Below are positions 46,864 to 64,000 of a DNA stretch of 64,000 nucleotides, piece by piece. Under the pieces are notes generated by a model. It was not told the DNA's origin, did no database searches, and saw nothing but the letters and a program-made list of their open reading frames with translations. Location of the stretch: NCBI GenBank assembly GCA_965248835.1, contig CBDFLJ010000002.1, positions 1,536,001 to 1,600,000 on the forward strand. Direction: 5' to 3'. Position numbers and translations under genes: made by a program. The number at the start of each line of letters is the position of its first letter. Positions within the stretch are counted from its first letter, which is position 1. This DNA comes from Alphaproteobacteria bacterium (GTDB lineage: Bacteria > Pseudomonadota > Alphaproteobacteria > MPNO01).

Positions 46864-46886
46864 CGCGCCTGCCGTTGACGTGTTTT

Positions 46887-46904
46887 GTTATGTAATATAA
46901 TAAC
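46887..46904. promoter_or_regulatory. Zur box
   Basis: gttatgtaatataataac (GTTAT...ATAAC dyad) between divergent zur and znuA. Confidence 0.75.
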
Positions 46905-46935
46905 CCTTCCAGAGCCCAACCACAATACGGGTGTG

Positions 46936-47829: not shown

Positions 47830-47905
47830 CGAATACCCCGAACACGCTGGACGAGATGGTCCACAAGGCGGACAACTCGGCTGGACCATCCGAGCGGAGA
47901 TACCG

Positions 47906-48848
47906 ATGCACCAACATGCGCCGATCGACATTCATGCCCACTACTACCCGGAGGGGTATCTGCGGCTGATCGAAAAGCACGGCTCGCGCTTCGATGCGGG
48001 CTGCGATGCCGCCGCGCTTCACCGATGTCGATCTGCGCGTTGCGGAGATGGACGAGATCGGCGTGGAGGTCCACGCGCTGTCGCTGACCATGCCGATGGT
48101 CGATTTCGCCGACGGCCCGTTCGCGCGCGATCTGTCGGCGGCCTTCAACGACGGCTGCGCGGAGGCCCATGGAAAGTATCCCGACCGCCTGGTGGGGTTT
48201 GCGATGCTGCCTTGGCACGCCCCCGATCTGGCGGTCGAGGAGCTCGCACGCGCAGCCACCCTGCCCGGCATCAAGGGCGTCTACGCGCCGACCCACGTGC
48301 TGGAGCACGAGCTCGGCGATGATCTGTTCCATCCGATCTACGAGATGATGGAGGATCTGGGCCTGGCGCTGTTCCTCCATCCGATCCATGTCGTCGCGCC
48401 CGAGCGGCTCAGCCGCTATTACCTCAACAACCTGATCGGCAACCCGACGGAATCGGGGATAGCCGCAGCCCATTTCATCTTCTCAGGGACCCTCGACAGG
48501 TTCCGAAGGCTCGCCGTCTGCCTGCCCCATGCCGGCGGCATCTTTCCCTATGTTGTGGGCCGCTTCGAGCACGGCCACAACGTCCGGCCGGAAATGGCCC
48601 ATCGCGACAACGGGCCGCTCGAATATCTCCGCAGGTTCTACTACGACACGGTGAGCCATTCGCCGGCGGCGCTGTCCTACCTGATCGACCTGGTCGGCGC
48701 CGACCGGGTGATGCTGGGCAGCGACTACTGCTTCGATATGGGCTACGAGCGCCCGGTCGAAATCGTCACCGCCCACCCCGGGATCGACGACCAGGCGGCC
48801 GCGCGGATCCTCGGCGGCAACGCCCGCGCCCTGCTGGGCTTGGCGTAG
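47906..48848 (+). pseudogene. Amidohydrolase_2 (ACMSD-like), frameshifted near N-terminus
   Basis: IDIHAHYYP in one frame; PPRFTD...FLHP...PHAGG...YYDT...LGSDY in another; break near 48005. Confidence 0.82.
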
Positions 48849-48907
48849 GGACGAACATCCGCCTATCATGAGTCCCGATAAGACAGGGGCGGCTGAAGAG
48901 GTCGGGC

Positions 48908-50227
48908 GTGGAGTGGTGGATCCTCCTGCTCTTTATTTTCGGCGGCGCGATGCTGCTGCTGGCCAAAGGCATGCCGGTGGCCTTCGCCTTCGTCCTGGTC
49001 AACATCCTGGGCGTGCTCTATCTGCAGGGCGGCGGGTCGGCGTTCAACGCGCTGGCGCGCAACATGTTCCAATCGGTCCACAGCTTCACCCTGCTGCCGA
49101 TCCCGCTGTTCGTGCTGATGGGCGAGATCCTGTGGCACTCCAAGGTCGCATTCAACGCGATCGACGCGATCGATAAGCTGCTCGGCCGGCTGCCCGGCCG
49201 GCTCAGCATCCTGACCGTCGTCTCGGGCACCGTCTTTTCCAGCCTGAGCGGGTCCACGGTCGCCAACACCGCGGTGCTCGGCACCATTCTGCTGCCGGAC
49301 ATGGAACGGCGCGGCTACCAGCGGCCGATGTCGATCGGCCCCATCCTGGCGAGCGGCGGTCTGGCAATGATCGTCCCGCCGAGCGGGCTTGCGGTGATCC
49401 TTGCCGCGATCGGCCACCTGTCGATCGGCCGTATCCTGATCGGCGCCTTGATCCCCGGGCTGATCATGGCCGCGCTCTACCTCGCCTATATCCTGATCCG
49501 CTGCCGGATCCAGCCTGGGTTGACCCCGTCCTACGAGGTGGACCCGGTGCCGCTGCGCGAGAGGATCTGGGGGATCATCAAATACATCCTGCCGCTGGGC
49601 ATCATCGTCTTCCTGGTGACCGGCGTGATCGTCGTCGGCGTCGCCACGCCGACCGAGGCCGCCGCACTCGGCTGCCTGGGCGCGTTCATCGTCGCCGCGC
49701 TCTACAAGAGCCTCGACTGGGGGGTGATCAAACGGGCGATGACCGGCACCGTCCAGGTCTCCGTCATTACCCTCACCATCCTGATGGGCGCGGTCGGATT
49801 TTCGCAGATCCTCGCCTTTTCCGGCGCCTCGCGCGGGCTGGTCGAGGCGGTGACCGACCTGCCGGTCCATCCGATCGTCCTGGTGCTCATCATGCAGCTC
49901 ATGGTGCTGCTGCTCGGGATGTTCATGGAGCAGATCTCGATCATGATGATCACGCTGCCGCTCTACATCCCGATCATCAAGGTGCTGGAATACGATCCGA
50001 TCTGGTTCGGCGTTCTGATGCTGATCAACCTTCAGATGGCACTGACCACCCCGCCCTTCGGCATCCTGCTGTTCGTCATGAAGGGAGTCGCCCCGGCCGA
50101 TACCAAGATGCGCGAGATCTACATGGCGGGGCTGCCGTTCCTGGTGTGCGATTTCATTGCGCTGATGATCGTCTTGTTCGTCCCCGACACGGTCGGTTGG
50201 CTGCAGAATCTGGCGTATGGCCGATGA
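48908..50227 (+). CDS. dctM: TRAP transporter large permease
   Basis: SGSTVANTA, IVPPS, PTEAAA, TTPPFG. Confidence 0.93.
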   Translation: MEWWILLLFIFGGAMLLLAKGMPVAFAFVLVNILGVLYLQGGGSAFNALARNMFQSVHSFTLLPIPLFVLMGEILWHSKVAFNAIDAIDKLLGRLPGRLSILTVVSGTVFSSLSGSTVANTAVLGTILLPDMERRGYQRPMSIGPILASGGLAMIVPPSGLAVILAAIGHLSIGRILIGALIPGLIMAALYLAYILIRCRIQPGLTPSYEVDPVPLRERIWGIIKYILPLGIIVFLVTGVIVVGVATPTEAAALGCLGAFIVAALYKSLDWGVIKRAMTGTVQVSVITLTILMGAVGFSQILAFSGASRGLVEAVTDLPVHPIVLVLIMQLMVLLLGMFMEQISIMMITLPLYIPIIKVLEYDPIWFGVLMLINLQMALTTPPFGILLFVMKGVAPADTKMREIYMAGLPFLVCDFIALMIVLFVPDTVGWLQNLAYGR

Positions 50228-50718
50228 AGCGGATCGTGAAAGCCTATGACGAATTCGTCGTCGCCCTGGGCGTGCTGTCGGGCGTGGCCATCCTGCTGGC
50301 GATGACGCTGGTGGTGGTCGACGTCCTGGGCCGATATTTCCTGAGCCTGCCGTTGGCCTGGGTGAACGAATGGACCGAGCACCTGATCGTGTTCATCCCG
50401 TTCTTCGGCATGGCCTGGCTGGTTCGCCGGCTGGGTGGCCATGTCCGCATCGACTTGGTGGTCAACGCGCTCAGCCCGCGCGCGCAAAACATCCTGGGCG
50501 TCTGGATTGCCGTCCTGTGCGCAGGAACCTGCGCGTTCGCAGCCTACTATGCCGGCATCGAGGCCTGGAAGAACTATGTCCGCGGCATCCAGACAATCGG
50601 CAACTTTCCCGTGCCCAAATACCCGCTGATCGCCGCGGTCTGCCTGGGCATGGGTCTGTGTGCCATCGAGTTCGCGAGGCTTGGAAGGGAGTACTATCAA
50701 AGACTGCGCGGCGGCTAA
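50224..50718 (+). CDS. dctQ: TRAP transporter small permease
   Basis: 4 TM, GGHVRID; ATGA overlap with dctM. Confidence 0.9.
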   Translation: MKRIVKAYDEFVVALGVLSGVAILLAMTLVVVDVLGRYFLSLPLAWVNEWTEHLIVFIPFFGMAWLVRRLGGHVRIDLVVNALSPRAQNILGVWIAVLCAGTCAFAAYYAGIEAWKNYVRGIQTIGNFPVPKYPLIAAVCLGMGLCAIEFARLGREYYQRLRGG

Positions 50719-50801
50719 CTCGGTTGGCCGACCCCGCCGCAGCGAACAACGTGAACACTGCCGGCGCGCCTTGCCGGTCGACATCAGAACGGGAGGTCAA
50801 G

Positions 50802-51806
50802 ATGCTGCGTAAAGATCTGATAAGAAGCGGCTTTATGGGTGTTGCTCTGGGCGTTGCGCTGGCCGCGGCACCGGGTGTGAACCCGGCAACGGCGGAGACC
50901 GAGCTGAAGGGGCTCGTGCCGTGGCCGCTGCCGTTCCTGCTGAGCGAGCCCTTCATCTGGTTCAAGGACGAGGTGAACAAGGAGCTCAAGGGCGAGATCA
51001 GGGTCAAGTTCCTCGGCGCCAGCGAGGTCGTGCCGGCGTTCGAGCAGTTCGGCGCGCTGCAGGACGGCGTGATCGATACGCTGCTCACCGCGACCGCCTA
51101 TTACAAGGGAACGCTTCCGGTCGGCCGCGCCGGACTGTTCTCCAACATTCCCGTCGGTGAGCGGCGCAAGACCGGCTTCTATCAGTTGATGCGGAAGATC
51201 CACGCGGAGAAGACCGACACGATCTATCTCTCCCAGTCAGGCGGGCCGCCCGGCGGCTTCCGCATCTATACCAGGGAGCGGCCGCGCGCCAAGCCCGACT
51301 TCAAGGGTATGAAGTTCCGTGGCGGCGGCGCCTATTCCCATCTGATCGGCGCGCTTGGTGGAACGACCGTGCTGATGAAGCCGTCGGAGGCCTATACCGC
51401 GCTGGAGCGCGGCATCGTCGACGGGCTCGGCTGGGCGCGGATCGGCGTCGTCGACCGGGCGCTGCACGAGGTGACCAAGTTCGTCGTCGACCACCCCTTC
51501 GAGATGGTCGACGATCCGATCCTCATCCGCGGCGAAGCCTGGCGCAAGATGTCCGCCAAGACCCGTGCCAAGCTCGAGGAGATCGGCGTCAGGATCGAAG
51601 CCAAGACGGACCGGGTGTTCGCCCAGGCCTACAAGGACGAGGACACCGCACTCGGGAAGCGCGGAATGACGTTCTTCAAATACGCCCCCGAAGACGCCAA
51701 GCGATACCTCCAATACGCCCACGAGGAAGGCTGGAAGATGATCATCAAGGCCGATCCGGTCAACGGCCCGAAACTGAAAGAGACCGGATATCGCCCGGTG
51801 ATGTAG
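50802..51806 (+). CDS. dctP: TRAP solute-binding protein
   Basis: Signal peptide, DFKGMKFR, YTALERGIVDG; RBS gggagg. Confidence 0.9.
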   Translation: MLRKDLIRSGFMGVALGVALAAAPGVNPATAETELKGLVPWPLPFLLSEPFIWFKDEVNKELKGEIRVKFLGASEVVPAFEQFGALQDGVIDTLLTATAYYKGTLPVGRAGLFSNIPVGERRKTGFYQLMRKIHAEKTDTIYLSQSGGPPGGFRIYTRERPRAKPDFKGMKFRGGGAYSHLIGALGGTTVLMKPSEAYTALERGIVDGLGWARIGVVDRALHEVTKFVVDHPFEMVDDPILIRGEAWRKMSAKTRAKLEEIGVRIEAKTDRVFAQAYKDEDTALGKRGMTFFKYAPEDAKRYLQYAHEEGWKMIIKADPVNGPKLKETGYRPVM

Positions 51807-51829
51807 ACCGGCCTCGCCGGCAACGGTTT

Positions 51830-51857
51830 TCGGGCCTCCCCGGCGCGGGAGGCCCGA
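51830..51857. terminator. Hairpin between convergent dctP and hnr
   Basis: tcgggcctccc-cggcgc-gggaggcccga. Confidence 0.65.
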
Positions 51858-51991
51858 TCCCGTTCGCGATCACGCTGCCCTATTTTCTGCCGGTGCTGAC
51901 GGCCGCCTGTCCGGCATGCGGCGCGCTTGATTTCGCGCGCAACCGGCTGTTCTCCCGGAACCGGGGCTTTCGCGAATAACCCGGCACCGGC

Positions 51992-53458
51992 TCAGATGTC
52001 GTCGATCGTCTCGCGCTCGTCCATCGGCCAGGGGTTGGCCGGGCGTTGCGGCTCCGAGCGCACCGGGCCGCGGGCCATGGCGTCCTCTAGCGAGACGATC
52101 GCATCCCCGTAACCGCCGAAATCAAGGAACTCCTCACGCGGCATGGTGAATTCGATCGGCGCCACCAGCGCCGGGGTCGGCACATAGCCGAAGGCGTTGT
52201 CCGGCATGGTGGTGACGTCGAGCATGACCGTGATCCCGCCGCCCGGCCAGACATAAACCGGCGCACCGCCGCAGGTCACCCGCGTGGCGTGGCGCTTGAT
52301 CGAGCGGGTCAGACGGACCGGGTTGACGGTCACGCCGGCGCGCAGGCTGCCGCCCGCCCCGCCCATGAACAGGACGCTGGACAGCGCCGGTTCGCAGTTC
52401 TCGCCGATCCGGTCGACCACGACCTGGAGGTCGGCGGGCATCGGCCCTTCGGCGGGCTTCAACGTCTCGTCAAGCTCGAAATAGGCCGCGTCCTGGCCGG
52501 TGGTCGAGACCATCAGCAGCTTGAGCCCGGGCCAGGCGGTCTTGTCGTCGATCTTCTCGATGATGCTCAGCGGGTCGGTAACGTCGGTGCCGCCCCAGCC
52601 GCCGCCGTGCTCGGCGACTTGGAAATAGCGCCCCGGGGTCGACCTGCGGCCGCGCACCCGGATGCCGGCGGGCGGCATGTCGAGGAATTTCCCCGATTGG
52701 TGCTCGGTCAGGACGCCGGTGATGTGGTCGTCGACCACGATGACCTCATCGACATGGCCGTGCCATTGCGGCGCGAAGATGCCGATGGTGGCCGAGCCGC
52801 AGCCGACCCGCATGCGCTCTTCCCGGTCACCGTCGATGACCGGCGGCTTGCCGGCCTGGACGCTCAGCGTGGCGCCGCCGTCGACGCTCATCTCGACCGG
52901 CTCCTTGTTGCACAGCGCGAGCATCGCCGCGCAGGTGACGTTGCCTTCCTTCTTGGTGCCGCCGGTCAGGTGGCGCACGCCGCCGATCGCCAGCATCTGC
53001 GAGCCGTATTCCGCGGTGGTCACGTGGCCGATCTGCTCGCCCTCGACCCGGATCGGGGCGGGCTCGGGCCCGATATAGCGGTCCGTGTCGATCTTGATCT
53101 TCACGCCGCAATAGGAGAACACGCCCTCGCTGACGACGGTGACCATGTCGATCCCCTCGTGCTCGGAGGAGACGATGAACGGTGCCGGCTTGTAGTCGGG
53201 ATAGGTCGTCGTCGCCCCGATGCCGGTCACGAATACCGGCTTGCCGGAGCGCACCAGCGAACCGTCCCAGACCTCGGCCGCGGTCAGGAACGGCACCAGC
53301 TCGCCGTCGTCGGCGGCGGCCTTCTGGGTGACCAGCAGCGGGTCCACACGGGTCAAGACGCCTTCGATATTGCCGTAGCGGTCGCACGCTCCGGTCTTTC
53401 CCGGGCGGATGCGACACAGCACCGGACAGGCGTCGCAGGTGATGATCTGATCGGTCAT
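51992..53458 (-). CDS. hnr: 6-hydroxynicotinate reductase
   Basis: CDACPVLC...GACDRY, YPDYKPAPFI, RMRVGCGSATIG, GGSLRAGVT.NP, VPTPALVAPIEFT; directly downstream of Mo-hydroxylase genes. Confidence 0.85.
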   Translation of the reverse strand: MTDQIITCDACPVLCRIRPGKTGACDRYGNIEGVLTRVDPLLVTQKAAADDGELVPFLTAAEVWDGSLVRSGKPVFVTGIGATTTYPDYKPAPFIVSSEHEGIDMVTVVSEGVFSYCGVKIKIDTDRYIGPEPAPIRVEGEQIGHVTTAEYGSQMLAIGGVRHLTGGTKKEGNVTCAAMLALCNKEPVEMSVDGGATLSVQAGKPPVIDGDREERMRVGCGSATIGIFAPQWHGHVDEVIVVDDHITGVLTEHQSGKFLDMPPAGIRVRGRRSTPGRYFQVAEHGGGWGGTDVTDPLSIIEKIDDKTAWPGLKLLMVSTTGQDAAYFELDETLKPAEGPMPADLQVVVDRIGENCEPALSSVLFMGGAGGSLRAGVTVNPVRLTRSIKRHATRVTCGGAPVYVWPGGGITVMLDVTTMPDNAFGYVPTPALVAPIEFTMPREEFLDFGGYGDAIVSLEDAMARGPVRSEPQRPANPWPMDERETIDDI

Positions 53459-53462
53459 CGTC

Positions 53463-56225
53463 TCACCCCTTCCCGCCCCTGTCATGGGCAAGGATGGCCG
53501 CTCGCACCCGGCCGGGCGTCGCCGGCGCCTGGGTGATGCGGACGCCGGTCGCATGGTAGATAGCCCCGAAAATCGCCGGCGGCGTGGCGATCAGGGTCGG
53601 CTCACCGATCCCCTTGGCGCCCCATGGGCCGGTCGGCTCGGGGTCCTCGACGACGACGTATTCGATTTCCGGCATGTCGCCGATCGTCGGGATCAGGTAG
53701 TCGTGCAGGTTCTCGGTCCGGCCGGGGACGAACTCCTCCATCAGCGCAAGGCCCAGGCCCTGGGCCACGCCGCCGTCGATCTGGCCTTCGACCTGCTGCG
53801 GGTTGAGCGAGCGGCCGACATCGTGGGCGGCGACCATCCGGCGGACCTTGACGGTGCCGAGCGCCACGTCGACCTCGACCGCGGCCAGGTGGGCGGCGAA
53901 GGCGTAGGTCGCGTAAGGCGTGCCTTGGCCGTTCTCGTCGGAGGGCCCGGTGGGCGGGTCGAACGTCCCCTCGCCCACCAGCACGTCCTCGCCGCGGGCA
54001 AGCGCGAGGCCCGTGAGATCGATCTCTCGGGTCGCATCGCCGTCGCGCAGCTTCAGGCCGCCGTCGCCGAATTCGATGCGCGCATCCTCGCCGACATTTG
54101 CAAGCCGCAGAATCTGGCGCCTCAAATCCTCACCGGCGCGCTTGGCCGCATTACCCGAGATGTAAGCCTGGCGGGACGCCGAGGTCTTGCCGGCATCGGC
54201 CGTCAGATCGGTATCGCCCCAGACCAGGACGATCCGCTTCATGTCGATCCCCAGCCCGTCGGCGGCGCACTGGACCATGGTCGTGTTGGTGCCCTGGCCG
54301 ATGTCCTGGGCGCCGGAATAGAGCGTCACGGTGCCGTCGCGCGTGATGCCCATATGCATGGTCGACGGGTTGGCCATCGAGGTGTTGCCGCAGCCGTACC
54401 ACATGCAGCCCAGCCCGACGCCGCGGCGCAGCACGCCGGAGGATGCGGCGTTGAACGCCTCGGCCTCCTGCTTGTATTGCCGCCAGTAGGGCCGCAGCCC
54501 GTCGAGACATGCCGCAAGTCCGCAGCTCGCCTTCAACACCTGGCCCGTCGCGGTCTCGTCGCCGACCCCGAGCGCGTTCATGCGGCGGAACTCGAGCGCA
54601 TCGATGCCGCACTTCTCGGCCATCATGTCCATCAGCATGTCGTGCAGCAGCGCCGCCTGGGGCACGCCGAAGCCGCGGAAGGCGCCGGCCGGTGTCTCGT
54701 TGGTGTAGACGCCGCACGATGTCGCGGTCACGCAAGGCACACGATAGGGCCCGGTCGCGTGCACCGGCACGCGGTCCTTCACCGTCAGCCCGAAGGAGAT
54801 ATAGGCCCCGGTGTTGAAGTCGCCGTGGAACCTGTAGCCGGTCAGCTTGCCGTCGGCGGTGCAGCCATAAGTGCCGCGGGTGCGCGAAGGGTGGCGCTTG
54901 GTCGAGGACGCCATCGACTCGATGCGGTTGTAGACCGCGCGCACCGGCCGGTCGATGTTCCAGGCTGCGACCGCGAGCAGCGGCTGGACCGACAGGTCGA
55001 TCTTGCCGCCGAACCCGCCGCCGCAGGCCGTCGGCAGCACCCGGACCGACTCGATGGGAATCCCGAGGATGTTGGCGAGCTCGTCGCGGTCCATGTGCGG
55101 CGCCTGGGTGGTGGCGGCGATCTCGAGCCGGTCGCCGACCCGCCGCGCCCATCCGGCCTCCGGCTCGATATAGGCGTGCTCGACGAAAGCGGTCTCGAAG
55201 CCGCCCTCGACGACGATGTCCGACGACGCCAGCGCGGCACCGGCATCGCCTTTCTTGACGAAGCCTCGGGCCATGACGTTGTCGTCCTGGCCGGCATGGA
55301 CGATCGGCGCACCCGCGGCCAGCGCCTGGTCGAGCCCATGGACGTGCGGGCGCACATGGTAGTCGATCGGCACCTCATCGTCGCGGATGCCGTGGACGGA
55401 CGCCTGATCGCCGACCAGGGCAAGCACCGCCTCGCCGCGGTAGCGCACCTCGCCGTCGGCCAGGATCGGCTGGTCCTTGACCGTCGGGTAGGCGCCGAAT
55501 CCGTTCACGGAAGGCACGTCGGCAGCGGTGATCACCCGCACCAGGCCCGGGTGGCTGTCGAACAACGGGGCAAGATCGCCGATCGTGAAGGCGGCGCTCC
55601 AGTGGGGCGAGCGAACGGCGCGCAGCCACAGCGAATCGGCAGGCGCCTGATCGGCACCGAACAGCTCGGTGCCGTCGACTTTCCGCCATCCGTCGGTCTT
55701 GGGCACCCGTGCGCCGACCGCCTCGCCGACCCCCGGGTTGTCGAGCTCGATCCCGTTGGGCTCGATCACGTGCCGCACGGCCTCGACAATCTTCTTGTAC
55801 CCGGTGCAGCGGCAAAGCACGCCGCCCAGCGCGTCGTTGATCGCCGCCTCGTCGGGCGCGTCGGCATGGCTCAACAGGTCGGCCGCGGCCATCAGCATGC
55901 CGGGAGTGCAGATCCCGCACTGCGCCGCGCCGTGCAGGTAGAAGGATTCCTGCAACGCCGCCATGCGGCCGCCGGCATCGGCCAGGCCTTCGACCGTCAA
56001 CACCGCGCGGCCGGCGACCTGACCCACCGGCGTCATGCAGGCGCAGACCTGCCTTCCGTCGAGCAGCACCGTACAGGCGCCGCAATCCCCTGCATCGCAG
56101 CCCACCTTGGTGCCGGTCAGCGCCAGATCCTCGCGCAGCACCTGGGCCAGTCTCCGGATCGGATCGACGCCGACCTCGGCCGGCTTGCCATTGAGGGTAA
56201 AGGCGATCTTCTCAGGCGTGGTCAT
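53463..56225 (-). CDS. Xanthine dehydrogenase-family fused [2Fe-2S]+molybdopterin subunit, probable nicotinate dehydrogenase
   Basis: GCDAGDCGAC, QCGICTPG, CRCTGY, GGGFGGK, AFRGFG, GAKGIGE. Confidence 0.88.
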   Translation of the reverse strand: MTTPEKIAFTLNGKPAEVGVDPIRRLAQVLREDLALTGTKVGCDAGDCGACTVLLDGRQVCACMTPVGQVAGRAVLTVEGLADAGGRMAALQESFYLHGAAQCGICTPGMLMAAADLLSHADAPDEAAINDALGGVLCRCTGYKKIVEAVRHVIEPNGIELDNPGVGEAVGARVPKTDGWRKVDGTELFGADQAPADSLWLRAVRSPHWSAAFTIGDLAPLFDSHPGLVRVITAADVPSVNGFGAYPTVKDQPILADGEVRYRGEAVLALVGDQASVHGIRDDEVPIDYHVRPHVHGLDQALAAGAPIVHAGQDDNVMARGFVKKGDAGAALASSDIVVEGGFETAFVEHAYIEPEAGWARRVGDRLEIAATTQAPHMDRDELANILGIPIESVRVLPTACGGGFGGKIDLSVQPLLAVAAWNIDRPVRAVYNRIESMASSTKRHPSRTRGTYGCTADGKLTGYRFHGDFNTGAYISFGLTVKDRVPVHATGPYRVPCVTATSCGVYTNETPAGAFRGFGVPQAALLHDMLMDMMAEKCGIDALEFRRMNALGVGDETATGQVLKASCGLAACLDGLRPYWRQYKQEAEAFNAASSGVLRRGVGLGCMWYGCGNTSMANPSTMHMGITRDGTVTLYSGAQDIGQGTNTTMVQCAADGLGIDMKRIVLVWGDTDLTADAGKTSASRQAYISGNAAKRAGEDLRRQILRLANVGEDARIEFGDGGLKLRDGDATREIDLTGLALARGEDVLVGEGTFDPPTGPSDENGQGTPYATYAFAAHLAAVEVDVALGTVKVRRMVAAHDVGRSLNPQQVEGQIDGGVAQGLGLALMEEFVPGRTENLHDYLIPTIGDMPEIEYVVVEDPEPTGPWGAKGIGEPTLIATPPAIFGAIYHATGVRITQAPATPGRVRAAILAHDRGGKG

Positions 56226-57064
56226 TCCTGGTTCTCCAGCTCGGCCAGCATGCGCCGGACCAGCGTCAAGGCGGCATCCATTCGGTAGGCGGCGGTCCCG
56301 CGCACATCGTCTATCGGCGAAAGCACACCCAGGTGCTCGGCGGCGGCGACTGCGGCCATGCCGCCGTCGATCGGCCGGCCGATCAGCGCCTGCTCGAGTT
56401 CGGGCAGCCTCCGGGCGACCGCCGAGCACGACCCGATCGCAAGCCGCGCGCCGGCGACCGTGCCGTCCGGGGCGGGCTCGACGACACCGGCCACCATGAC
56501 GATCGAGATCACCAGATACTTGCGCGCGCCGAGCTTCAGGAAGCTGCTCCGCGCGCCGTCGGCCGGCTTGGGGATCGTGATCGCGGTAACCATCTCGCCC
56601 GGCGCGCGGACCGTCTGGCGGTTGCCGGTGACGAATTCGGCCAGCGGCACCGAGCGCGCGCCGGCCGCCGAGGCGAGTTCGACGACCGCATCGAGGCTGA
56701 GCAGGCCGGGCACGCCGTCGGCGGCAGGCGAGGCGTTGCAGACATTGCCGACGATCGTGCCGGCGTTTTGCACCTGGATGCCGCCGACCTCTCGTGCGGC
56801 CCGCTTCAAACCGTCGAAGCAGGGCGGCAAGGCGGCGGCGATCAGCTCCGACCAGGTCACCAGCGCACCGATCCGGAAGTGGTCCGCGTGCTCGGTGATC
56901 CCCCGCAGCGCCGCGATCCCGGTGACGTCGAGCACGTCGTCATCGAGCGGCTTGCCGACCCGGGCCGGGTAGTAGTCGGTGCCGCCGGCGACGATCGCGC
57001 GCGGCGTCTCGTTCAGCGCCGCCAGAGCCGTGTCCAGTTCGCTGGGGCGTAGATAGCTTGCCAT
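56222..57064 (-). CDS. Mo-hydroxylase FAD-binding subunit (NdhF-like)
   Basis: AGGTD, Q..NAGT..GN.CNASPAAD, PIDDVRGTA.YR. Confidence 0.9.
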   Translation of the reverse strand: MASYLRPSELDTALAALNETPRAIVAGGTDYYPARVGKPLDDDVLDVTGIAALRGITEHADHFRIGALVTWSELIAAALPPCFDGLKRAAREVGGIQVQNAGTIVGNVCNASPAADGVPGLLSLDAVVELASAAGARSVPLAEFVTGNRQTVRAPGEMVTAITIPKPADGARSSFLKLGARKYLVISIVMVAGVVEPAPDGTVAGARLAIGSCSAVARRLPELEQALIGRPIDGGMAAVAAAEHLGVLSPIDDVRGTAAYRMDAALTLVRRMLAELENQE

Positions 57065-57125
57065 TTCCTGCGGGTCCCGATCAGCCTGTCGGACAAAGCT
57101 TCGCACGGCACGGTTGCCGCCGCAA

Positions 57126-57148
57126 AATTGTTCGTGTACATACAAATT
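57126..57148. promoter_or_regulatory. Putative NicR (MarR) operator upstream of the ndh-hnr operon
   Basis: aattgttcgtgtacatacaaatt; first 20 nt are 17/20 identical to 62115-62134. Confidence 0.7.
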
Positions 57149-57360
57149 AGAAGTCAACCCGACCCGACCTGTCAAGCATTAGTCGGTGCGGTCTCATTTC
57201 GGATGAGTCGTGCGTGGACCGGATCGAATCGGTGCCACGGCCCAATGCGGCGTGCTATAGTCCGGCCGCGCCGGCCCCGCGTGGGTGCCGGTTGACTTTT
57301 GCGGATCGGGGGCCATGACTCCGTTCGGCGGGCAAGAATTCCACGCGGATGGGTGGGACG

Positions 57361-59238
57361 ATGGCGACCAAGCTTGCGAGTTCCGAATCGGCCGGGAAGG
57401 CTCCCCGCAAGTCGCTCGATTCGGTGGTGATCCGGTTTGCCGGCGATTCGGGCGACGGGATGCAGTTGACCGGGACCCAGTTCACCCAGTCGACCGCTCT
57501 GATGGGCAACGACCTGGCCACCTTCCCGGATTTCCCGGCCGAGATCCGCGCGCCGATCGGCACGACCTATGGCGTCTCGGCCTTCCAGATCAACTTCGCC
57601 TCCTATGACATCATGACGCCGGGCGATGCGCCGGACGTTCTGGTCGCCATGAACCCGGCCGCGCTCAAGGTCCACCTGCGCGACGTGCCCAAGGGCGGAA
57701 CCATCGTCGTCAACACCGACACGTTCAACAACCGCAACATCGCCAAGGCGGGGTATGCCGCCGACCCGTTGGAAGACGGCACGCTCGACAACTATGTCGT
57801 CATCTCGATCGAAATCCAGAAGATGACGTTGGCGGCGGTCAACGGGCTGGGGCTGTCCAACAAGGAAGCGGTGCGCTGCAAGAACATGTGGGCGCTGGGG
57901 CTGATGTGCTGGATGTACGACCGCGACCGGCAGCCGACGGTCGACTGGCTCAACCAGCGGTTCGGCGAACGCGCGCCGGCGCTTGCCGCAGCCAACATTG
58001 CCGCGCTCAACGCCGGCCACGCCTACGGCGAGACCGCCGAGCTGCCGAGCGGCGCCCAGGCCTATGTCGTACCCAAGGCCGACGTGCAGCCGGGCATCTA
58101 CCGCGCGGTCACCGGCACCGAGGCGATTGCCTGGGGGCTGGTCACCGGCGCCCACAAGGCGGGGTTGCCGCTGTTCCTGGGCTCCTACCCGATCACTCCA
58201 GCCTCGGCATTGCTGCACACGCTGTCGAACCTCAAGCAGTACGGCGTAACGACGTTCCAGGCCGAGGACGAGATCGCAGCGGTGTGCTCGGCGATCGGCG
58301 CCTCGTTCTCCGGCGCGATCGGCGTGACTTCGAGCTCCGGGCCCGGCATCGCGCTCAAGACCGAGGCGATCGGACTTGCGTTCGCTGCAGAGCTGCCTCT
58401 GGTGGTGGTCAACAGCCAGCGCGGCGGGCCTTCGACCGGGCTTCCGACCAAGACCGAGCAGTCGGATCTGTTCCAGGCGGTCTATGGCCGAAACGCCGAT
58501 TCGCCGTTGCCCGTCCTCGCCTCGCGGACCGCGGGGGACTGCTTCTTCACCGCGATCGAGGCGGTCCGGCTGGCGGTAAAATACATGACCCCTGTGATCC
58601 TGTTGACCGACGGCTATCTCGCCAACGCGGCCGAACCCTGGGAGATCCCGGATGTCGACGACATCCCCGACTTCAAGGTCGCGCTGCGGACCGACCCGGA
58701 GGGATTCCATCCCTTCCTGCGCGATGACAAGACGCTGGCGCGCAACTGGGCGGTGCCCGGCACGCCGGGTCTGATGCACCGGATCGGCGGCATCGAGAAG
58801 AGCTACGAGACCGGGCACATTTCCTATGACCCGGACAACCATCACCGGATGACCAAGGTCCGCGCGGCCAAGGTCGACGGCATAGCCAACGACATCCCCG
58901 AGCAGGAGGTCGCCATAGGCCCGTCCTCCGGCAAACTCGCGGTCGTCGGCTGGGGCTCGACGTTCGGTGCGATCAACCAGGCGGTCGGCCGGGTCAACGC
59001 TGCGGGCCTGGATGTCGCCCATGTTCACATCCGCCATATCTGGCCGCTGCCCAGGAACCTCGGCGACCTGTTGCGCGGCTACAAAAAGATCCTGGTGCCG
59101 GAGATGAACGACGGCCAGTTGGTGACGGTCCTGCGCGCGCAGTACCTGGTGCCGGCCGAAGGGCTCAACCAGATTTCCGGCCTGCCCTTCAAGGTCTCCG
59201 ATCTCGAGGCGGCGATCCGCGAGCGCGTGGAGAACTAG
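57361..59238 (+). CDS. korA: 2-oxoacid (2-oxoglutarate):ferredoxin oxidoreductase alpha subunit
   Basis: AGDSGDG, FPAEIRAP, YPITP, QAEDE, QRGGPSTG.PT, EMN.GQ. Confidence 0.93.
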   Translation: MATKLASSESAGKAPRKSLDSVVIRFAGDSGDGMQLTGTQFTQSTALMGNDLATFPDFPAEIRAPIGTTYGVSAFQINFASYDIMTPGDAPDVLVAMNPAALKVHLRDVPKGGTIVVNTDTFNNRNIAKAGYAADPLEDGTLDNYVVISIEIQKMTLAAVNGLGLSNKEAVRCKNMWALGLMCWMYDRDRQPTVDWLNQRFGERAPALAAANIAALNAGHAYGETAELPSGAQAYVVPKADVQPGIYRAVTGTEAIAWGLVTGAHKAGLPLFLGSYPITPASALLHTLSNLKQYGVTTFQAEDEIAAVCSAIGASFSGAIGVTSSSGPGIALKTEAIGLAFAAELPLVVVNSQRGGPSTGLPTKTEQSDLFQAVYGRNADSPLPVLASRTAGDCFFTAIEAVRLAVKYMTPVILLTDGYLANAAEPWEIPDVDDIPDFKVALRTDPEGFHPFLRDDKTLARNWAVPGTPGLMHRIGGIEKSYETGHISYDPDNHHRMTKVRAAKVDGIANDIPEQEVAIGPSSGKLAVVGWGSTFGAINQAVGRVNAAGLDVAHVHIRHIWPLPRNLGDLLRGYKKILVPEMNDGQLVTVLRAQYLVPAEGLNQISGLPFKVSDLEAAIRERVEN

Positions 59239-59239
59239 C

Positions 59240-60271
59240 ATGAACGTCCAGACCCCCCTCGAGCAGCTCAAGCCGGCCGATTACGCTTCCGACCAGGAGG
59301 TCCGCTGGTGCCCGGGCTGCGGCGACTACGCGATCGTGAAGTCGGTGCAGCGGACGATGGCCGACCTCCAGCTTCGGCCGGAAAAGGTGGTGTTCATCTC
59401 CGGCATCGGTTGCGCCGCGCGGTTCCCCTACTACATGGCGACCTACGGGTTCCACACGATCCACGGCCGCGCGCCGGCGCTGGCGACCGGCACCAAGCTC
59501 GCCAACCCCGACCTCGACATCTGGGTGGTCATGGGCGACGGCGACTGCCTGTCGATCGGCGGCAACCACACGCTGCATGCGCTGCGCCGCAACGTCGACA
59601 TGCAGATGCTGCTGTTCAACAACGAGATCTACGGGCTGACCAAGGGCCAGTATTCGCCGACCTCGCGGCTCGGCACCCGCTCGCCCTCGACCCCGCAGGG
59701 CTCGGTCGATTCGCCGGTCAATGCCACCGTGTTCGCGCTTGGCGCCGGCGCCAGGTTCGTCGCCCGGTCGGTCGACACCAACCAGAAGCACCTGCCCGAG
59801 ATGCTCAAGCGGGCGCATGCCCACAAGGGCGCCTCGTTCCTCGAGATCATCCAGAACTGCATCGTCTACAACGACGGCGCGTTCGCGGAGTGGACCGATA
59901 GGGCCGCAGCGGCCGATTCGCAGGTGGTGGTCGAAGACGGCAAGCCGCTGATCTTCGGCAAGGATGGCGAAAAGGGCTTGCGCATCGTACCGGGCGCGCT
60001 GGCTCTGGAGGTCGTCACCATCGGCGAGGACGGCGTGACCGAAGACGACATCCTGGTCCATGACGAGACCGACCGGGCCTTGGCAGGGCTGCTCGGGGCG
60101 ATGGAGCACCCCGACTTCCCGGTGGCGGTCGGCGTGCTGTATTGCGATCCCGCCAAGCCCTACGAAGCCGCCGTCCACGAGCAGATCGAGCAGATCAGGC
60201 AGAAGACACCGGCCGGCGATCTCAATGCGATGCTGCGGCGCGGCCGTACCTGGACCGTCGCACCCGGCTGA
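59240..60271 (+). CDS. korB: 2-oxoacid:ferredoxin oxidoreductase beta subunit
   Basis: WCPGCGD, SGIGC, GDGD..SIGGNH, NN.IYGLTKGQYSPT. Confidence 0.93.
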   Translation: MNVQTPLEQLKPADYASDQEVRWCPGCGDYAIVKSVQRTMADLQLRPEKVVFISGIGCAARFPYYMATYGFHTIHGRAPALATGTKLANPDLDIWVVMGDGDCLSIGGNHTLHALRRNVDMQMLLFNNEIYGLTKGQYSPTSRLGTRSPSTPQGSVDSPVNATVFALGAGARFVARSVDTNQKHLPEMLKRAHAHKGASFLEIIQNCIVYNDGAFAEWTDRAAAADSQVVVEDGKPLIFGKDGEKGLRIVPGALALEVVTIGEDGVTEDDILVHDETDRALAGLLGAMEHPDFPVAVGVLYCDPAKPYEAAVHEQIEQIRQKTPAGDLNAMLRRGRTWTVAPG

Positions 60272-60288
60272 GGCCCCCGCGGGGCTTT
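60271..60288 (+). terminator. Short hairpin with T-run after korB
   Basis: aggcccc-cgc-ggggcttt. Confidence 0.4.
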
Positions 60289-60341
60289 ACCGCCACAAGC
60301 CCTCGGCTATCATGGCGCCGATCGAGCCTCAGGAGCCATGA

Positions 60342-61658
60342 ATGTCCCGTAGCGTCGCCGTCGTGGGGTCGGGTCCCGGCGGCATGTATGTTGCCCAAGG
60401 GCTGATCGACAAGTTGCCCGGCTGTCGGGTCGACGTGTTCGACCGACTGCCCTCGCCTTTCGGGCTGATCCGCGGCGGCGTAGCGCCGGATCATCAGAAA
60501 ACCAAGCGCGTCAGCCGTGCCTTCGAGAAGACCATGCTTGCCGAGGGCGCGCGCTTCATCGGCAATGTCGAGGTCGGCCGCGACATCGAGATCGGCGCGC
60601 TGGAGGAGGCCTACGACGCGGTCGTGCTCGCCTATGGCGCGCCTTTCGACAACCGGCTCGGGATCCCCGGCGAGGACAAGATCAACGTCTTCGGCTCCAA
60701 CGCCTTCGTAGGCTGGTACAACTGCCACCCGGACTTCATCGACCTGAACCCGGACCTCAACGTGTCTGCGGTCGCGGTGATCGGCGTGGGCAATGTCGCC
60801 GTCGATGTCGCCCGGGTGCTCGCCAAGACGCCGAAGGAGATGTCGGTCACCGATCTGGCGCCCTATGCCGGGCCGGCGATTGACGCGGCCCCGATCCGCG
60901 ACATCTACATGTTCGGCAGGCGCGGGCCGGTCGAGGCGGCGTTCACCAACGTCGAGCTCCGCGAGATGGGCGAGCTCGAGAACGCGCAGCCCATCGTCAA
61001 TCTCGGCCACCTGCCCGAGGAGGTCGTTGCCCCCTACATGTCCGATCGCGACCTGCGCCTGAGTGCCAGGAACGTCGCCACCATGCGCGGCTTCGATGCC
61101 GTCGGCAGCGAGGGCAAGGCCAAGCGCGTCCATTTCAGCTTTTTCGCAAGCCCGTTGGAAATCCTGGGCGGTGACCGGGTCGAGGGTGTGCGCCTGGAAC
61201 GCACCCGGGTCGAGGACGGCCGCTGCATCCCGATCGGCGAGACCTTCGAGGTCGCGTGCGGGCTGGTGATTACCTGCATCGGCAGCCGCGCCGACCCGCT
61301 CGACAGCGTGCCGTTCGACGACCGCAAGGGGATTGTGATCCACGAGAACGGCCGGGTGCGGCCCGGCCTGTACGCCGCCGGCTGGGTCAAGCGCGGCGCG
61401 ACGGGAACCATCGGCACCAACAAGAACGATTCGCTGGCCGTGGTCGACCTCCTGATCGGCGACCTCGCCGGCCCCGAGAAAAACGGACCGGCCGCATTCG
61501 ATGCCATCGCACAGGAGCGGAGCTTGCGGGTCGTCAGCTACCCCGACTGGCAGATCATCGACCGCCTGGAGACCGAAGCCGCCCCGCCGGGCGCCCCACG
61601 CAGGAAATTCGTCACGCCGGAAGAAATGCTTGCGGCGCTAGGCCAGCCGCCGCAATAG
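60342..61658 (+). CDS. Ferredoxin-NADP+ reductase, FprA/adrenodoxin reductase type
   Basis: GSGPGG, FGLIR.GVAPDH, G.GNVA.DVAR, GRRGP, GWVKRG.TG.IG.N. Confidence 0.88.
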   Translation: MSRSVAVVGSGPGGMYVAQGLIDKLPGCRVDVFDRLPSPFGLIRGGVAPDHQKTKRVSRAFEKTMLAEGARFIGNVEVGRDIEIGALEEAYDAVVLAYGAPFDNRLGIPGEDKINVFGSNAFVGWYNCHPDFIDLNPDLNVSAVAVIGVGNVAVDVARVLAKTPKEMSVTDLAPYAGPAIDAAPIRDIYMFGRRGPVEAAFTNVELREMGELENAQPIVNLGHLPEEVVAPYMSDRDLRLSARNVATMRGFDAVGSEGKAKRVHFSFFASPLEILGGDRVEGVRLERTRVEDGRCIPIGETFEVACGLVITCIGSRADPLDSVPFDDRKGIVIHENGRVRPGLYAAGWVKRGATGTIGTNKNDSLAVVDLLIGDLAGPEKNGPAAFDAIAQERSLRVVSYPDWQIIDRLETEAAPPGAPRRKFVTPEEMLAALGQPPQ

Positions 61659-62096
61659 CGCCAGGAAGGTCCGCCGCTCCACCTCGCTCAAAGGTGCGAG
61701 CGTCGCATCGGTAATCGCGCGGCCGTTCCGCGTGATCGCTGCAACGAGATCGCGGCCTGACGCGGTCAGGCTGAGGACGAGGCGGCGGCGGTCGGACGCA
61801 TCGGGGCGGCGGTCGATCAGCCTGCGGGCCAACAAGCGCTTGATCACGCCGTGCATGGTGGCCGCGTCCATTGCGGTCCGGCGGCCGAGCTCGTTCTGGG
61901 AGACCTCGCCAAGGTCGCCGAGCTTGACCAGGGCTGCGAACTGCAGCGGCGTGGCCTGGTCGTCGCCGACCATCGACTGGAAGATCACCGCATGCCGCTG
62001 GTGCGCTCGGCGCAGCAGGTGGCCGACCTGGTCCTCCAGGACATAGTCCGCGGCAGGAACAAGTTCGGCTTCTGCGGAATCAGCGGCCGGTTTCAT
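61638..62096 (-). CDS. MarR-family regulator, NicR-like
   Basis: Y.LEDQVGHLLRRAHQRH..IF, TAMD.AT..GVI.RL, DRR. Confidence 0.88.
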   Translation of the reverse strand: MKPAADSAEAELVPAADYVLEDQVGHLLRRAHQRHAVIFQSMVGDDQATPLQFAALVKLGDLGEVSQNELGRRTAMDAATMHGVIKRLLARRLIDRRPDASDRRRLVLSLTASGRDLVAAITRNGRAITDATLAPLSEVERRTFLALLRRLA

Positions 62097-62114
62097 CGAA
62101 CGGCCGATCCTCAT

Positions 62115-62135
62115 AATTGTTCGTATACAAACGAT
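62115..62135. promoter_or_regulatory. Putative autoregulatory NicR operator
   Basis: aattgttcgtatacaaacgat; minus-strand TTGACA at 62154-62159. Confidence 0.7.
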
Positions 62136-62228
62136 GGCCGAGCCCTGGAGTCGTGTCAAGCCGACGGCTCGATCAGACCATGTATGCGCGGCGGCATGGA
62201 CCCCGGCGCGGGGCCGGGATGGACGGGT

Positions 62229-63452
62229 TCAGATCACCTCGGCCTCGCGTAGTGCGGCGATGGCGCTTGCGTCGAGGCCCAGCACGTCGGCAAGCACCGT
62301 CTCGGTGTGCTCTCCCAGCACCGGGGCGGCACCGGGGTAGTCGTGCGGGTGACCGACATAGCGGATCGGGTTGGCGACGCCCGGGACCGTGCCGGCTTCG
62401 GCATGGGAAAGCGCGATCCGCGTGCCGCGGTGTCGGGTCTGGGGGTCGGAAAAGATCTGGGCGAGGTCGTTGATCGGGCCGCACGGCACGCCGACGGCTT
62501 CGAGGTCGGCAAGCCACGCCGCGCGGGTCCTGGTCGCCATCATGTCGGCGATCTCGGCGACCAGCTCCTCACGGTGTGCGACACGGCCGGCATTGGTGGC
62601 ATAACGCGCATCCCCGGCCAGATCCGGCCGGCCGCCGGCATGGCAGAACCGATCGAACTGGGCATCGTTGCCGACCGCGACGATCACATGATCGTCTGCG
62701 GTCTTGAACGACTGGTATGGCACGATGTTGGGATGCGCGTTGCCCATCCGACCGGGCGCCGTGCCGGTCGCCAGAAAATTCATCGCCTGATTGGCGGTCG
62801 CGGCCACGGTGACGTCGAACAGGGCCATGTCGACGTGGCGGCCCTGGCCGGTCCGATCGCGCTCGCGCACCGCAGCCAGGGCAGCGATCGTGGTGTAGAG
62901 CCCGGTCAAGACGTCGGACAGCGCCACACCGATTTTCTGTGGACCGCCGCCCGGCACCCCGTCGCGTTCGCCGGTGATCGACATGAAGCCGCCCATCGCC
63001 TGGATCATGAAGTCATAGCCCGCGCGCTTGGCGTAGGGTCCGGTCTGGCCGAACCCGGTGATCGAGCAGTAGATCAGCCCGGGATTGACTTCCTTGAGGT
63101 CGTCATAGGCCAGCCCGTAGCGGGCCAGCCCGCCGACCTTGTAGTTCTCCAGCAGGATGTCGGATTTGCCGGCCAGTTCGCGGGCGATGCGCTGGCCGTC
63201 GGGCTTGGCCAGATCGAGCGTGACCGACTTCTTGCCGCGGTTGGCACAGTGGAAATAGGCCGCGTCCGCGGTCTCGTTGCCCTCGCGGTCGCGGATGAAA
63301 GGCGGGCCCCAGACACGGGTGTCGTCGCCGGTGCCGGGACGCTCGATCTTGATCACCTCGGCGCCGAGGTCGGCCATCGTCTGCCCGGCCCAGGGTCCGG
63401 CCAGAATTCGGCTGAAATCGAGGACCCGGAGCCCCGATAGCGGTCCGGACAT
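62229..63452 (-). CDS. Family III CoA-transferase (succinyl-CoA:glutarate type)
   Basis: LAGPW, GDDTR.WGPP, NRGKKS, GYDF.IQAMGG, GNAHPNIVPYQ; next to gcdH. Confidence 0.88.
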   Translation of the reverse strand: MSGPLSGLRVLDFSRILAGPWAGQTMADLGAEVIKIERPGTGDDTRVWGPPFIRDREGNETADAAYFHCANRGKKSVTLDLAKPDGQRIARELAGKSDILLENYKVGGLARYGLAYDDLKEVNPGLIYCSITGFGQTGPYAKRAGYDFMIQAMGGFMSITGERDGVPGGGPQKIGVALSDVLTGLYTTIAALAAVRERDRTGQGRHVDMALFDVTVAATANQAMNFLATGTAPGRMGNAHPNIVPYQSFKTADDHVIVAVGNDAQFDRFCHAGGRPDLAGDARYATNAGRVAHREELVAEIADMMATRTRAAWLADLEAVGVPCGPINDLAQIFSDPQTRHRGTRIALSHAEAGTVPGVANPIRYVGHPHDYPGAAPVLGEHTETVLADVLGLDASAIAALREAEVI

Positions 63453-63455
63453 CGT

Positions 63456-64000
63456 CTACGTGAACGCCTGGATGCCGGTCTGCGCGCGCCCCAGGATCAG
63501 CGCGTGGATGTCATGGGTGCCCTCGTAGGTGACGATGGTTTCCATGTTCATCAAGTGGCGCATAACGTGATACTCGTCGACGATCCCGTTGCCGCCGTGC
63601 ATGTCGCGCGCCTCGCGAATCATGTCGCGTGCCTTGCCGGTCGAGTTGCGCTTGAGCATCGAGATCGATTCGGGCGAACAGGTGCCATCGTCCATCATCC
63701 GGCCGAGCTGGAGACAGGCATGCAGACCGATTGAGATTTCGGTCTGCATGTCGGCGAGCTTTTTCTGGATGAGCTGGTTTGCCGCCAGGGGCCGGCCGAA
63801 CTGGCTGCGCTCCAGCGTGTACTGGCGCGCGGCGTGCCAGCAGAACTCCGCCGCACCCAGCGCGCCCCATGCGATGCCGTAGCGCGCGTTGTTGAGGCAG
63901 CCGAACGGCCCGCCGAGCCCCTTTGCGTGCGGCAGACGGTTCTCCGCCGGGACGAAGACATCCTCCATCACGATCTCGCCGGTGACCGAGGCGCGCAGCG
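63456..64000 (-). CDS. gcdH: Glutaryl-CoA dehydrogenase (5' part outside window)
   Basis: [49 protein letters not shown]. Confidence 0.93.

Follow-up and report, generated by a model that had tools for sequence, protein, structure and literature searches.

Reduction of the pyridine ring of 6-hydroxynicotinate is a ferredoxin-level reaction that was first known from a strict anaerobe. Homologues of hnr, the gene for the reductase, are common in aerobic Proteobacteria, yet their usual clusters encode no electron donor. What could supply the electrons is the question raised by an alphaproteobacterial locus in the 64,000-nucleotide stretch analyzed here (the window; G000:C2:1536001-1600000, ~67% G+C), where ndh-type hydroxylase genes and hnr are separated from a marR-type regulator gene by genes for a two-subunit 2-oxoacid:ferredoxin oxidoreductase (korA and korB; korAB) and an NADPH:ferredoxin reductase (fpr). 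We give a probability of about 0.5 to the reading that KorAB, together with Fpr, is the source of low-potential electrons for Hnr, and that a neighboring CoA-transferase and glutaryl-CoA dehydrogenase (GcdH) form a glutarate branch. That KorAB and Fpr were recruited for Hnr had been proposed in an earlier, sequence-only reading of the window, whose gene order and strands held for all nine genes (Table 1). A conserved linkage and promoter boxes before korA in relatives speak for the recruitment; the wide occurrence of the module, its single copy in this genome and the lack of a korA box here speak against it.

A genome-contig scan returned 585 hnr-encoding stretches, and the locus counts given here refer to the best 80 of these 585. 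In addition, 400 other alphaproteobacterial genomes were sampled in a survey of the class, with counts read from match coordinates. korA, korB and fpr were found together in five of the 80 loci (L006, L007, L019, L035 and L023), and overall seven other genomes or contigs (L006, L007, L019, which is G309, L035, L023, G169 and G188) have korAB no more than 10 kb from hnr, so the linkage is not confined to this genome, as one refuting condition of the sequence-only reading would have required. Two gene orders were observed. In order A (L006, L007, L019/G309, L035 and G169), fpr-korB-korA is encoded on the opposite strand between acd-coaT-marR and hnr-c4-c3-c3; ndhF-ndhSL is absent upstream of hnr, and a different Mo subunit and an enamidase are encoded a few kb downstream. 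In order B (L023 and G188), the genes (marR)-korA-korB-fpr-ndhF-ndhSL-hnr-c4-hyuA follow one another on a single strand. The L023 contig begins at korA, and only 21 nt separate its fpr from ndhF; in G188, the two are separated by chrB-chrA (L083:8824-10928), a chrB-like gene together with one for a chromate transporter. The window combines the flanks of order A with ndhF-ndhSL before hnr. Wherever the upstream side is covered (order A and G188), korAB-fpr sits between marR and the ndh/hnr genes. G169, a 99%-complete genome, has korAB beside hnr, and no fpr match was found in it. Finally, G320 encodes korA-korB-fpr-ndhF-ndhSL-hyuA on one strand (L122, G320:C1:2450500-2469000) with hnr and c4 missing between ndhSL and hyuA; its hnr is 1.4 Mb away from this cluster.

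The main rival explanation is that korAB-fpr is an independent general module for 2-oxoglutarate oxidation and ferredoxin/NADPH balance, which stands beside hnr by shared ancestry and supplies nothing to Hnr. We regard this as rather unlikely, and several features of the relatives argue against it. The linkage persists in two gene orders, and the korA lineages involved cannot be treated as one clade. A 28-row KorA tree groups the proteins of order A with the window KorA (support 99), G188 with G098 and L023 with G320; a single clade of A plus B was rejected (approximately unbiased test, p-AU 0.019) and a single clade of B alone was not (p = 0.42), the groups having been set by gene order and tested after the tree was seen. 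Order B is co-directional at a spacing of 21 nt, five order-A korA promoters carry the box found before hnr or ndhF (see below), and G320 has kept its korAB-fpr-ndh set together even without hnr. An Hnr tree of 83 rows places all eight kor-linked proteins within one 11-row clade together with L003, L004 and L005 (support 84). Contig ends truncate the upstream side of L003 and L005, and no korA was found in the 6 kb upstream of L004.

Table 1. Positions of the genes and promoter boxes of the hnr locus and of the converging flanking genes, numbered from the first letter of the window.
Feature	Position	Strand	Remarks
hnr	51992-53458	-	ATG at 53458; 488 aa; single copy in genome
fused [2Fe-2S] and molybdopterin subunit gene (putative NdhS+L/M; ndhSL)	53463-56225	-	Pfam architecture of the xanthine dehydrogenase (XDH) family
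ndhF, FAD subunit	56222-57064	-	FAD_binding_5 and CO_deh_flav_C
korA, alpha subunit of two-subunit 2-oxoacid:ferredoxin oxidoreductase	57349-59238	+	TIGR03710
korB, beta subunit (thiamine pyrophosphate, TPP; Fe-S)	59240-60271	+	TPP_enzyme_C
fpr, AdR/FprA-type NADPH:ferredoxin reductase	60342-61658	+	PDB 1CJC, 1LQT
marR, MarR-family regulator, NicR-like by position	61638-62096	-	MarR_2 and MarR domains; start and ribosome-binding site read
family III CoA-transferase, candidate succinyl-CoA:glutarate CoA-transferase	62229-63452	-	CoA_transf_3, 440 bits
gcdH, glutaryl-CoA dehydrogenase	63456-64000 (3' part in window)	-	complete in genome, start ~64670
18-bp palindromic box TTGTTCGTGTACATACAA, putative MarR operator	57128-57145		in ndhF-korA spacer
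second palindromic box (1 mismatch) at marR promoter	62117-62134		directly 3' of CTTGACAC -35
Amidohydro_2-family hydrolase	47994-48848	+	PF04909, 110 bits; first of plus-strand run converging on hnr
dctM (TRAP transporter)	48908-50227	+	converges on hnr
dctQ (TRAP transporter)	~50224-50718	+	converges on hnr
dctP (TRAP transporter)	~50802-51806	+	converges on hnr

The minus-strand hydroxylase and hnr genes are tightly packed: the ndhF stop and the start of the Mo-subunit gene overlap as ATGA, and four bases lie between the Mo-subunit stop and the hnr ATG. (The Hnr query used in searches, 51992-53461, is one N-terminal residue longer than the true reading frame.) On the other side, the 3' end of marR overlaps fpr by 21 nt. 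The sequence-only reading had also noted a hairpin after korB. A GC-rich hairpin is indeed present on the plus strand at 60266-60294, where it overlaps the korB stop and is followed by just UUUA, but it was not called by a terminator scan and the fold of the surrounding 96 nt has z = -0.68.

The promoter boxes are the second line of evidence. The palindrome TTGTNNGTNNACNNACAA occurs at only three sites in the 4.9-Mb genome when at most one mismatch is allowed. The first, in the ndhF-korA spacer, lies closer to ndhF (64 nt to its ATG) than to korA (204 nt to its ATG), and it abuts the -10 element of a minus-strand ndhF promoter recognized by eye as TTGACA-N18-TCTAAT (-35 TTGACA at 57170-57175). 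The second is at the promoter of marR itself, and the candidate regulator has a MarR domain and a promoter of its own that carries the box of the ndhF promoter, the putative operator. The third (C1:1485994) precedes a VanA-like Rieske oxygenase gene (its product 49% identical to cluster member c24) and an AA_synth paralogue, which are probably members of the same regulon. In other loci, the box recurs upstream of ndhF, hnr or korA. Five order-A relatives have two boxes in the korA-hnr spacer, 44–85 nt from korA and 70–95 nt from hnr, each behind a CTTGACAG -35 element; the left box of L007 fails the scan at one mismatch and was read by eye. Seven loci that lack kor genes (L005, L017, L020, L024, L034, L052 and L080) have the box 39–66 nt upstream of ndhF, and in L077, which also lacks them, it is 75 nt upstream of hnr. 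L006 additionally has one 41 nt upstream of marR, and the marR-korA spacer of G188 contains a variant palindrome that is longer by one central base. Because the order-A korA promoters carry the box of hnr and ndhF, korAB appears to share the hnr regulon in these relatives.

The same cannot be said of the genome studied here, and this is the weakest point of our reading. ndhF and korA diverge across 284 bp, a spacer that had been proposed to be a shared divergent promoter, but the palindrome belongs to the ndhF promoter and not to the predicted korA promoter. A single promoter-like site was predicted for korA (57232-57261), and the box lies ~87 nt upstream of its -35. No second box was found near the korA promoter of this genome even at three mismatches, and the regions before gcdH, the enamidase gene and c4-c3 yielded none either. 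Membership of korAB in the hnr regulon is therefore not evident in this genome. We also considered the 14-mer CTATAGTCCGGCCG, which has two genomic sites, one upstream of korA (57255-57268) and one upstream of gcdH (window-equivalent 64706-64719), in each case on the coding strand. It was given no weight as a shared signal, as it includes the common -10-like hexamer TATAGT and its 10-mer core occurs 12 times genome-wide.

What korAB-fpr is and where else it is found bear on the electron-supply reading in both directions. KorA scores 642.7 bits against TIGR03710 (cut-off 482.75), and KorB is marginally under the cut-off of TIGR02177 (258.4 versus 261.9 bits). The best solved match of KorA is 6N2N (265 bits), which we take to be the 2-oxoglutarate enzyme of Magnetococcus. 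All NCBIfam equivalogs scored below their cut-offs and the subfamily models do not separate substrates; KorAB is best described as a two-subunit enzyme of the OAFO family with 2-oxoglutarate as its putative substrate. Fpr aligns with 1CJC (311 bits, residues 4–434) and 1LQT (286 bits). korA, korB and fpr are each present in a single copy, and no POR_N gene besides korA scored above cut-off in the genome. A normal SucA is also encoded (1100 bits), and KorAB is therefore not needed for the tricarboxylic acid cycle; this favors the electron-supply reading, as does the fact that the genome has no other such oxidoreductase. Across the class, however, korAB-fpr occurs widely and as a module in its own right: korAB and fpr are at most 3 kb apart, in either order, in ~40 sampled genomes, among which no hnr was found in 26, hnr is elsewhere in 12, and it is adjacent in two. 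The neighbors at 18 such loci are heterogeneous and include genes for a metallo-beta-lactamase-fold hydrolase, a response regulator, an ADP-ribosylglycohydrolase, other CoA-transferases, acyl-CoA dehydrogenases, and ATP-binding cassette (ABC) transporters. Given this number of genomes and this variety of neighbors, the pair appears to have a function of its own. An older link between kor and gcdH, considered on account of acyl-CoA dehydrogenase genes near korAB-fpr in G006, G191 and G155, was rejected, their products being only 33–35% identical to GcdH.

Conversely, hnr is frequently found without korAB. It was detected in 62 of the 400 genomes (63 of 401 with this one), and a korA-family match in 106 of the 400. 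Of the hnr genomes, 32 lack any korA orthologue (at least 54% identity), and the two genes occur together in 30; hnr and korA are less than 12 kb apart in only three of these (G309, G169 and G188), on the same contig but at least 250 kb apart in seven, and on different contigs in 20. Hnr thus usually works without KorAB. Likewise, 75 of the 80 hnr loci have no korA in the DNA covered, only 56 of the 80 reaching at least 8 kb upstream of hnr. The kor-linked loci also represent a narrow set of relatives, and kinship inflates their counts. The wide occurrence of the module, its varied neighbors, the single-copy status of its genes, the box-less predicted korA promoter and the lack of korA in half of the hnr genomes also speak for the independent module.

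Functional integration of korAB-fpr as the reductant supply in one Hnr subclade is nevertheless suggested, on genomic evidence, by a position conserved in two gene orders, by the box at korA promoters of relatives, by the retention of korAB without fpr in G169, and by the fact that typical clusters encode no other donor. The neighbors most common at hnr loci are an ApbE-like protein (c4, ~290 aa; 76/80), an AA_synth protein (c3, PF06684; 55/80), ABC transporter parts (36/80 and 34/80), an enamidase-like amidohydrolase (25/80), and hydantoinase A (19/80), none of which is an obvious source of reductant. These accompany ndhSL (66/80), ndhF (60/80) and marR (35/80, of which 18 directly upstream of ndhF) around hnr itself (80/80). 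c4 was considered as an electron donor for Hnr and rejected. It exceeds the cut-off of NF003322 ("hypothetical protein"; 369.6 versus 290 bits) and has no Pfam match, and its predicted structure (predicted local distance difference test, pLDDT, 89.9) matches DVU1097/DUF375 (E = 1e-11) and the flavin transferases ApbE, Ftp and FmnB (E = 7e-5 to 4e-3, probability 0.97–1.0). From the model we infer that c4 may be a flavin-maturation factor for Hnr.

A separate observation concerns two loci outside the hnr set, L118 (G037) and L125 (G286), in which genes divergent from korAB-fpr encode homologues (54–62% identity) of two transporter components known from hnr clusters, the ABC binding protein and the fused permease; no hnr match was found in either genome.

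The Hnr family itself offers some precedent for a dedicated electron input. The window protein matched no Pfam or NCBIfam model and no PDB sequence, and its putative name rests on homologues called 6-hydroxynicotinate reductase and on synteny. At least 8000 candidates were retrieved at E <= 0.001; the 120 matches listed are 72–90% identical, and 10 of these 120 carry the name 6-hydroxynicotinate reductase at NCBI or JGI. Four cysteines near the N-terminus, numbered C9, C12, C16 and C26 in the 489-aa query, do not vary across alignments of 16 and of 39 sequences, as would suit an Fe-S cluster. Ten representatives of the family were scanned for domains. Three ~510-aa forms (P0126, P0130 and P0133) have an N-terminal 4Fe-4S dicluster domain, and in two natural fusion proteins, P0127 (982 aa) and P0132 (969 aa), Hnr is joined to both a 4Fe-4S domain and a GltD-like NAD(P)H flavoprotein (Fer4_20 plus Pyr_redox_2). 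No Fer4 domain was found in P0122, P0131, P0134, P0160 or P0216. Likewise, the domain scan and the alignment did not find the N-terminal 2x[4Fe-4S] domain of the long forms in the window Hnr, which is a short form, 35–45% identical to its long-form relatives and 29% to the short representative P0216. The sources named for long forms are Nitrospiraceae, Chloroflexota and Bathyarchaeota metagenome-assembled genomes. In view of the GltD-like fusions, a dedicated electron-input partner recurs in the family. A structural model of the window protein (pLDDT 88; predicted template modeling score 0.85) had no fold match in the PDB at E <= 0.001 by Foldseek, and the family fold appears to have no solved representative. 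According to a passage of PMC3511419, a Bradyrhizobiaceae homologue is 42% identical to the Eubacterium barkeri enzyme.

The fusions raise another possibility, namely that Fpr is the true partner. NADPH made by the hydroxylase would pass through Fpr to Hnr, either via ferredoxin or directly, and hydroxylation would therefore pay for ring reduction, with KorAB mainly supplying succinyl-CoA. The NAD(P)H-linked input of the fused proteins, the position of fpr directly before ndhF in order B and in G320, and the need of the SUGCT-like CoA-transferase for a CoA donor are all consistent with this idea. We consider it improbable all the same: G169 keeps korAB beside hnr with no fpr found, NADPH would be a weak donor for a reaction that uses ferredoxin in E. 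barkeri, and SucAB is already able to make succinyl-CoA.

Whether a ferredoxin would carry electrons from KorAB to Hnr also bears on the electron-supply reading. As the sequence-only reading had cautioned, neither an enamidase gene nor a small ferredoxin reading frame is present in 46001-64000; both kinds of gene were located elsewhere in the genome, the 7Fe and 2x[4Fe-4S] ferredoxins at C1:372022-372360 and C2:972598-972858. No credible small Fe-S reading frame was detected in the window region or in L006, L007, L019, L035, L086, L083, L023, L084 and L085, which counts against the electron-supply reading. The more specific version, in which KorAB is a direct partner of Hnr in an aerobe with no cluster ferredoxin, each turnover passing two low-potential electrons to the four cysteines of the short-form Hnr and yielding one succinyl-CoA for glutarate activation, and Fpr buffering the pool against NADPH, is in our judgment doubtful. 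If it were true, one 2-oxoglutarate would pay stoichiometrically for one nicotinate.

The substrate was approached through the hydroxylase. Pfam identified all expected parts, with the FAD subunit accompanied by a pair of [2Fe-2S] domains and a domain for molybdopterin binding, the Mo subunit comprising Fer2, Fer2_2, Ald_Xan_dh_C, MoCoBD_1 and MoCoBD_2. The Mo subunit matches chains A and B of E. barkeri nicotinate dehydrogenase (NDH; 3HRD) with 246 and 227 bits, below its top solved match, an aldehyde oxidoreductase (MOP, 387 bits), and every NCBIfam equivalog fell below its cut-off. What supports a putative specificity of the enzyme for nicotinate is synteny with hnr (66/80 loci), ndhF-ndhSL being directly upstream of it here. 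It has to be asked, then, whether the cluster acts on another N-heterocyclic or aromatic acid, with the Hnr homologue reducing a different ring. Such a substrate would account for the lack of any substrate-specific model match for Hnr and the Mo enzyme, for the aldehyde oxidoreductase as best solved match, and for the UbiD decarboxylases, major facilitator superfamily (MFS) transporter and LigB dioxygenase encoded nearby. It is nonetheless quite improbable in our view. GcdH fits the glutarate route reported for Azorhizobium, the island of a relative has two isochorismatase/nicotinamidase-family genes, and the ndh-hnr-ApbE-like-enamidase synteny is that of the nicotinate cluster of A. caulinodans and Bradyrhizobiaceae as far as it is described in a portion of PMC3511419. 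The island in question adjoins the order-A hnr cluster of G309 (the two nicotinamidase-like genes at L085:8025-9552) and also has chemoreceptor, flavin-reductase-like and MOSC genes.

For the glutarate branch, the evidence differs between the two enzymes that had been proposed as the lower pathway. The acyl-CoA dehydrogenase is by sequence a canonical GcdH, scoring 593 bits against the solved enzymes 3GNC, 3EOM and 1SIQ and at most 245 bits against acyl-CoA dehydrogenases of other specificity, and its gene is the only orthologue in the genome. The CoA-transferase resembles SUGCT (338 bits to the human enzyme, 9BR7) and has NF052585 (succinate-glutarate CoA-transferase) as its best family, but at 511 bits it remains under the equivalog cut-off of 750. 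The gcdH-CoA-transferase-marR arrangement was found only in this genome and the order-A relatives (four of the 80 loci plus G169).

Taken together, the cluster is best read as encoding a pathway of the reductive type of Azorhizobium and E. barkeri acting on nicotinate or a close pyridine carboxylate. NdhF and the fused FeS-Mo subunit would convert nicotinate to 6-hydroxynicotinate, Hnr would reduce the ring to tetrahydro-6-oxonicotinate, the enamidase encoded elsewhere in the genome would open it, and the CoA-transferase and GcdH would take glutarate to crotonyl-CoA. The MarR protein may act as a repressor on the 18-bp palindrome at the ndhF and marR promoters, and we infer regulation by nicotinate. 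Under the electron-supply reading, a resident korAB-fpr module would have become part of the cluster in this Hnr subclade. KorAB would oxidize 2-oxoglutarate, and its electrons would reach Hnr either on a housekeeping ferredoxin or without a carrier, at the N-terminal four-Cys cluster, while Fpr would couple the low-potential electron pool to NADPH; every KorAB turnover would also give succinyl-CoA for the CoA-transferase.

Several genes of the typical hnr cluster, namely c4, c3, the enamidase and the ABC transporter, have no counterpart in this window. The enamidase orthologue, at C2:232272-233426 and ~1.35 Mb away, shares 73% identity with the gene linked to hnr in L008. Those for c4 and c3 (58% and 56% identity) are at C2:1869056-1870511 (L088:7039-8512), 280 kb from hnr, among genes for a tripartite ATP-independent periplasmic (TRAP) system, a PuuE-like deacetylase and an HsaA-like monooxygenase. 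Another TRAP system converges on hnr in the window (DctM 270 bits, DctP 72 bits, DctQ 74.5 bits) and is a candidate for the uptake system that replaces the ABC transporter of typical clusters, dctM homologues being present in two of the 80 loci. The Amidohydro_2 hydrolase encoded before it had no NCBIfam match, and homologues were found in none of the 80 loci; its membership in the pathway is uncertain.

Farther out, the flank at 43725-47829 has genes for a LigB-type extradiol dioxygenase and a znuCB-zur/znuA zinc uptake locus, and beyond gcdH (L002:1631-8138) are two UbiD-family decarboxylases, an MFS transporter and a zinc-type alcohol dehydrogenase. On the other contig, C1:1-21046 is an inverted copy (99.3% identity) of its last 21 kb (C1:2264326-2285374) and includes an aprB-like reading frame. 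These inverted ends are either an assembly artefact or terminal inverted repeats, and the duplication may be the source of the 9.5% contamination figure.

How the locus compares with known systems can now be stated. A nicotinate catabolism cluster of A. caulinodans ORS571 and Bradyrhizobiaceae is described in part of PMC3511419, which cites Alhapel et al. 2006, and, to the extent given there, hnr likewise comes after ndh hydroxylase genes in it, and a MarR regulator is part of the cluster. The locus studied here differs from it in having korAB-fpr between marR and ndhF, in the attached gcdH and CoA-transferase genes, in the scattering of enamidase and c4-c3 over the genome, and in the TRAP system in place of the ABC transporter. 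The reductive nicotinate cluster itself is already known; no description of korAB or fprA linked with hnr was found in the literature searched, which covered few subscription journals.

The E. barkeri Hnr (EC 1.3.7.1) is ferredoxin-dependent, its nicotinate dehydrogenase has four subunits, and its lower pathway is a B12-dependent route. The Hnr proteins are probably homologous, and the Mo enzymes are (3HRD chains), but the FeS and Mo subunits are fused here and the proposed lower pathway would run through glutaryl-CoA instead. Work by Kitts and colleagues in 1992 reportedly traced the Azorhizobium route via tetrahydro-6-oxonicotinate to glutarate, followed by succinyl-CoA-dependent CoA transfer to glutaryl-CoA. 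Glutarate operons of the gcdH-gcoT type, for example in Pseudomonas, likewise pair GcdH with a family III CoA-transferase, and here the MarR gene of the nicotinate cluster comes next. The closest parallel for the electron supply is in Thauera aromatica, where KorAB drives benzoyl-CoA ring reduction, and in Azoarcus evansii, which has an NADP-dependent 2-oxoglutarate oxidoreductase (KGOR). As in those organisms, genes for a two-subunit ferredoxin oxidoreductase, here with 2-oxoglutarate as its putative substrate, accompany those for a reductive dearomatization that requires low-potential electrons and for an NADP-linked flavoprotein. In contrast to them, there is no cluster ferredoxin gene here and the acceptor would be Hnr and not an ATP-dependent reductase; the flavoprotein is of the AdR/FprA type, and the module is single-copy and widespread with no ring reductase nearby.

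For the Hnr family, the subclade that has korAB and fpr within the cluster, in some relatives with the operator as well, provides a concrete and testable candidate for the electron donor. If the electron-supply reading is correct, the coupling of KorAB to dearomatization would have a second example next to benzoyl-CoA reduction, and korAB-fpr, a widespread module in aerobes, would gain one defined physiological context.

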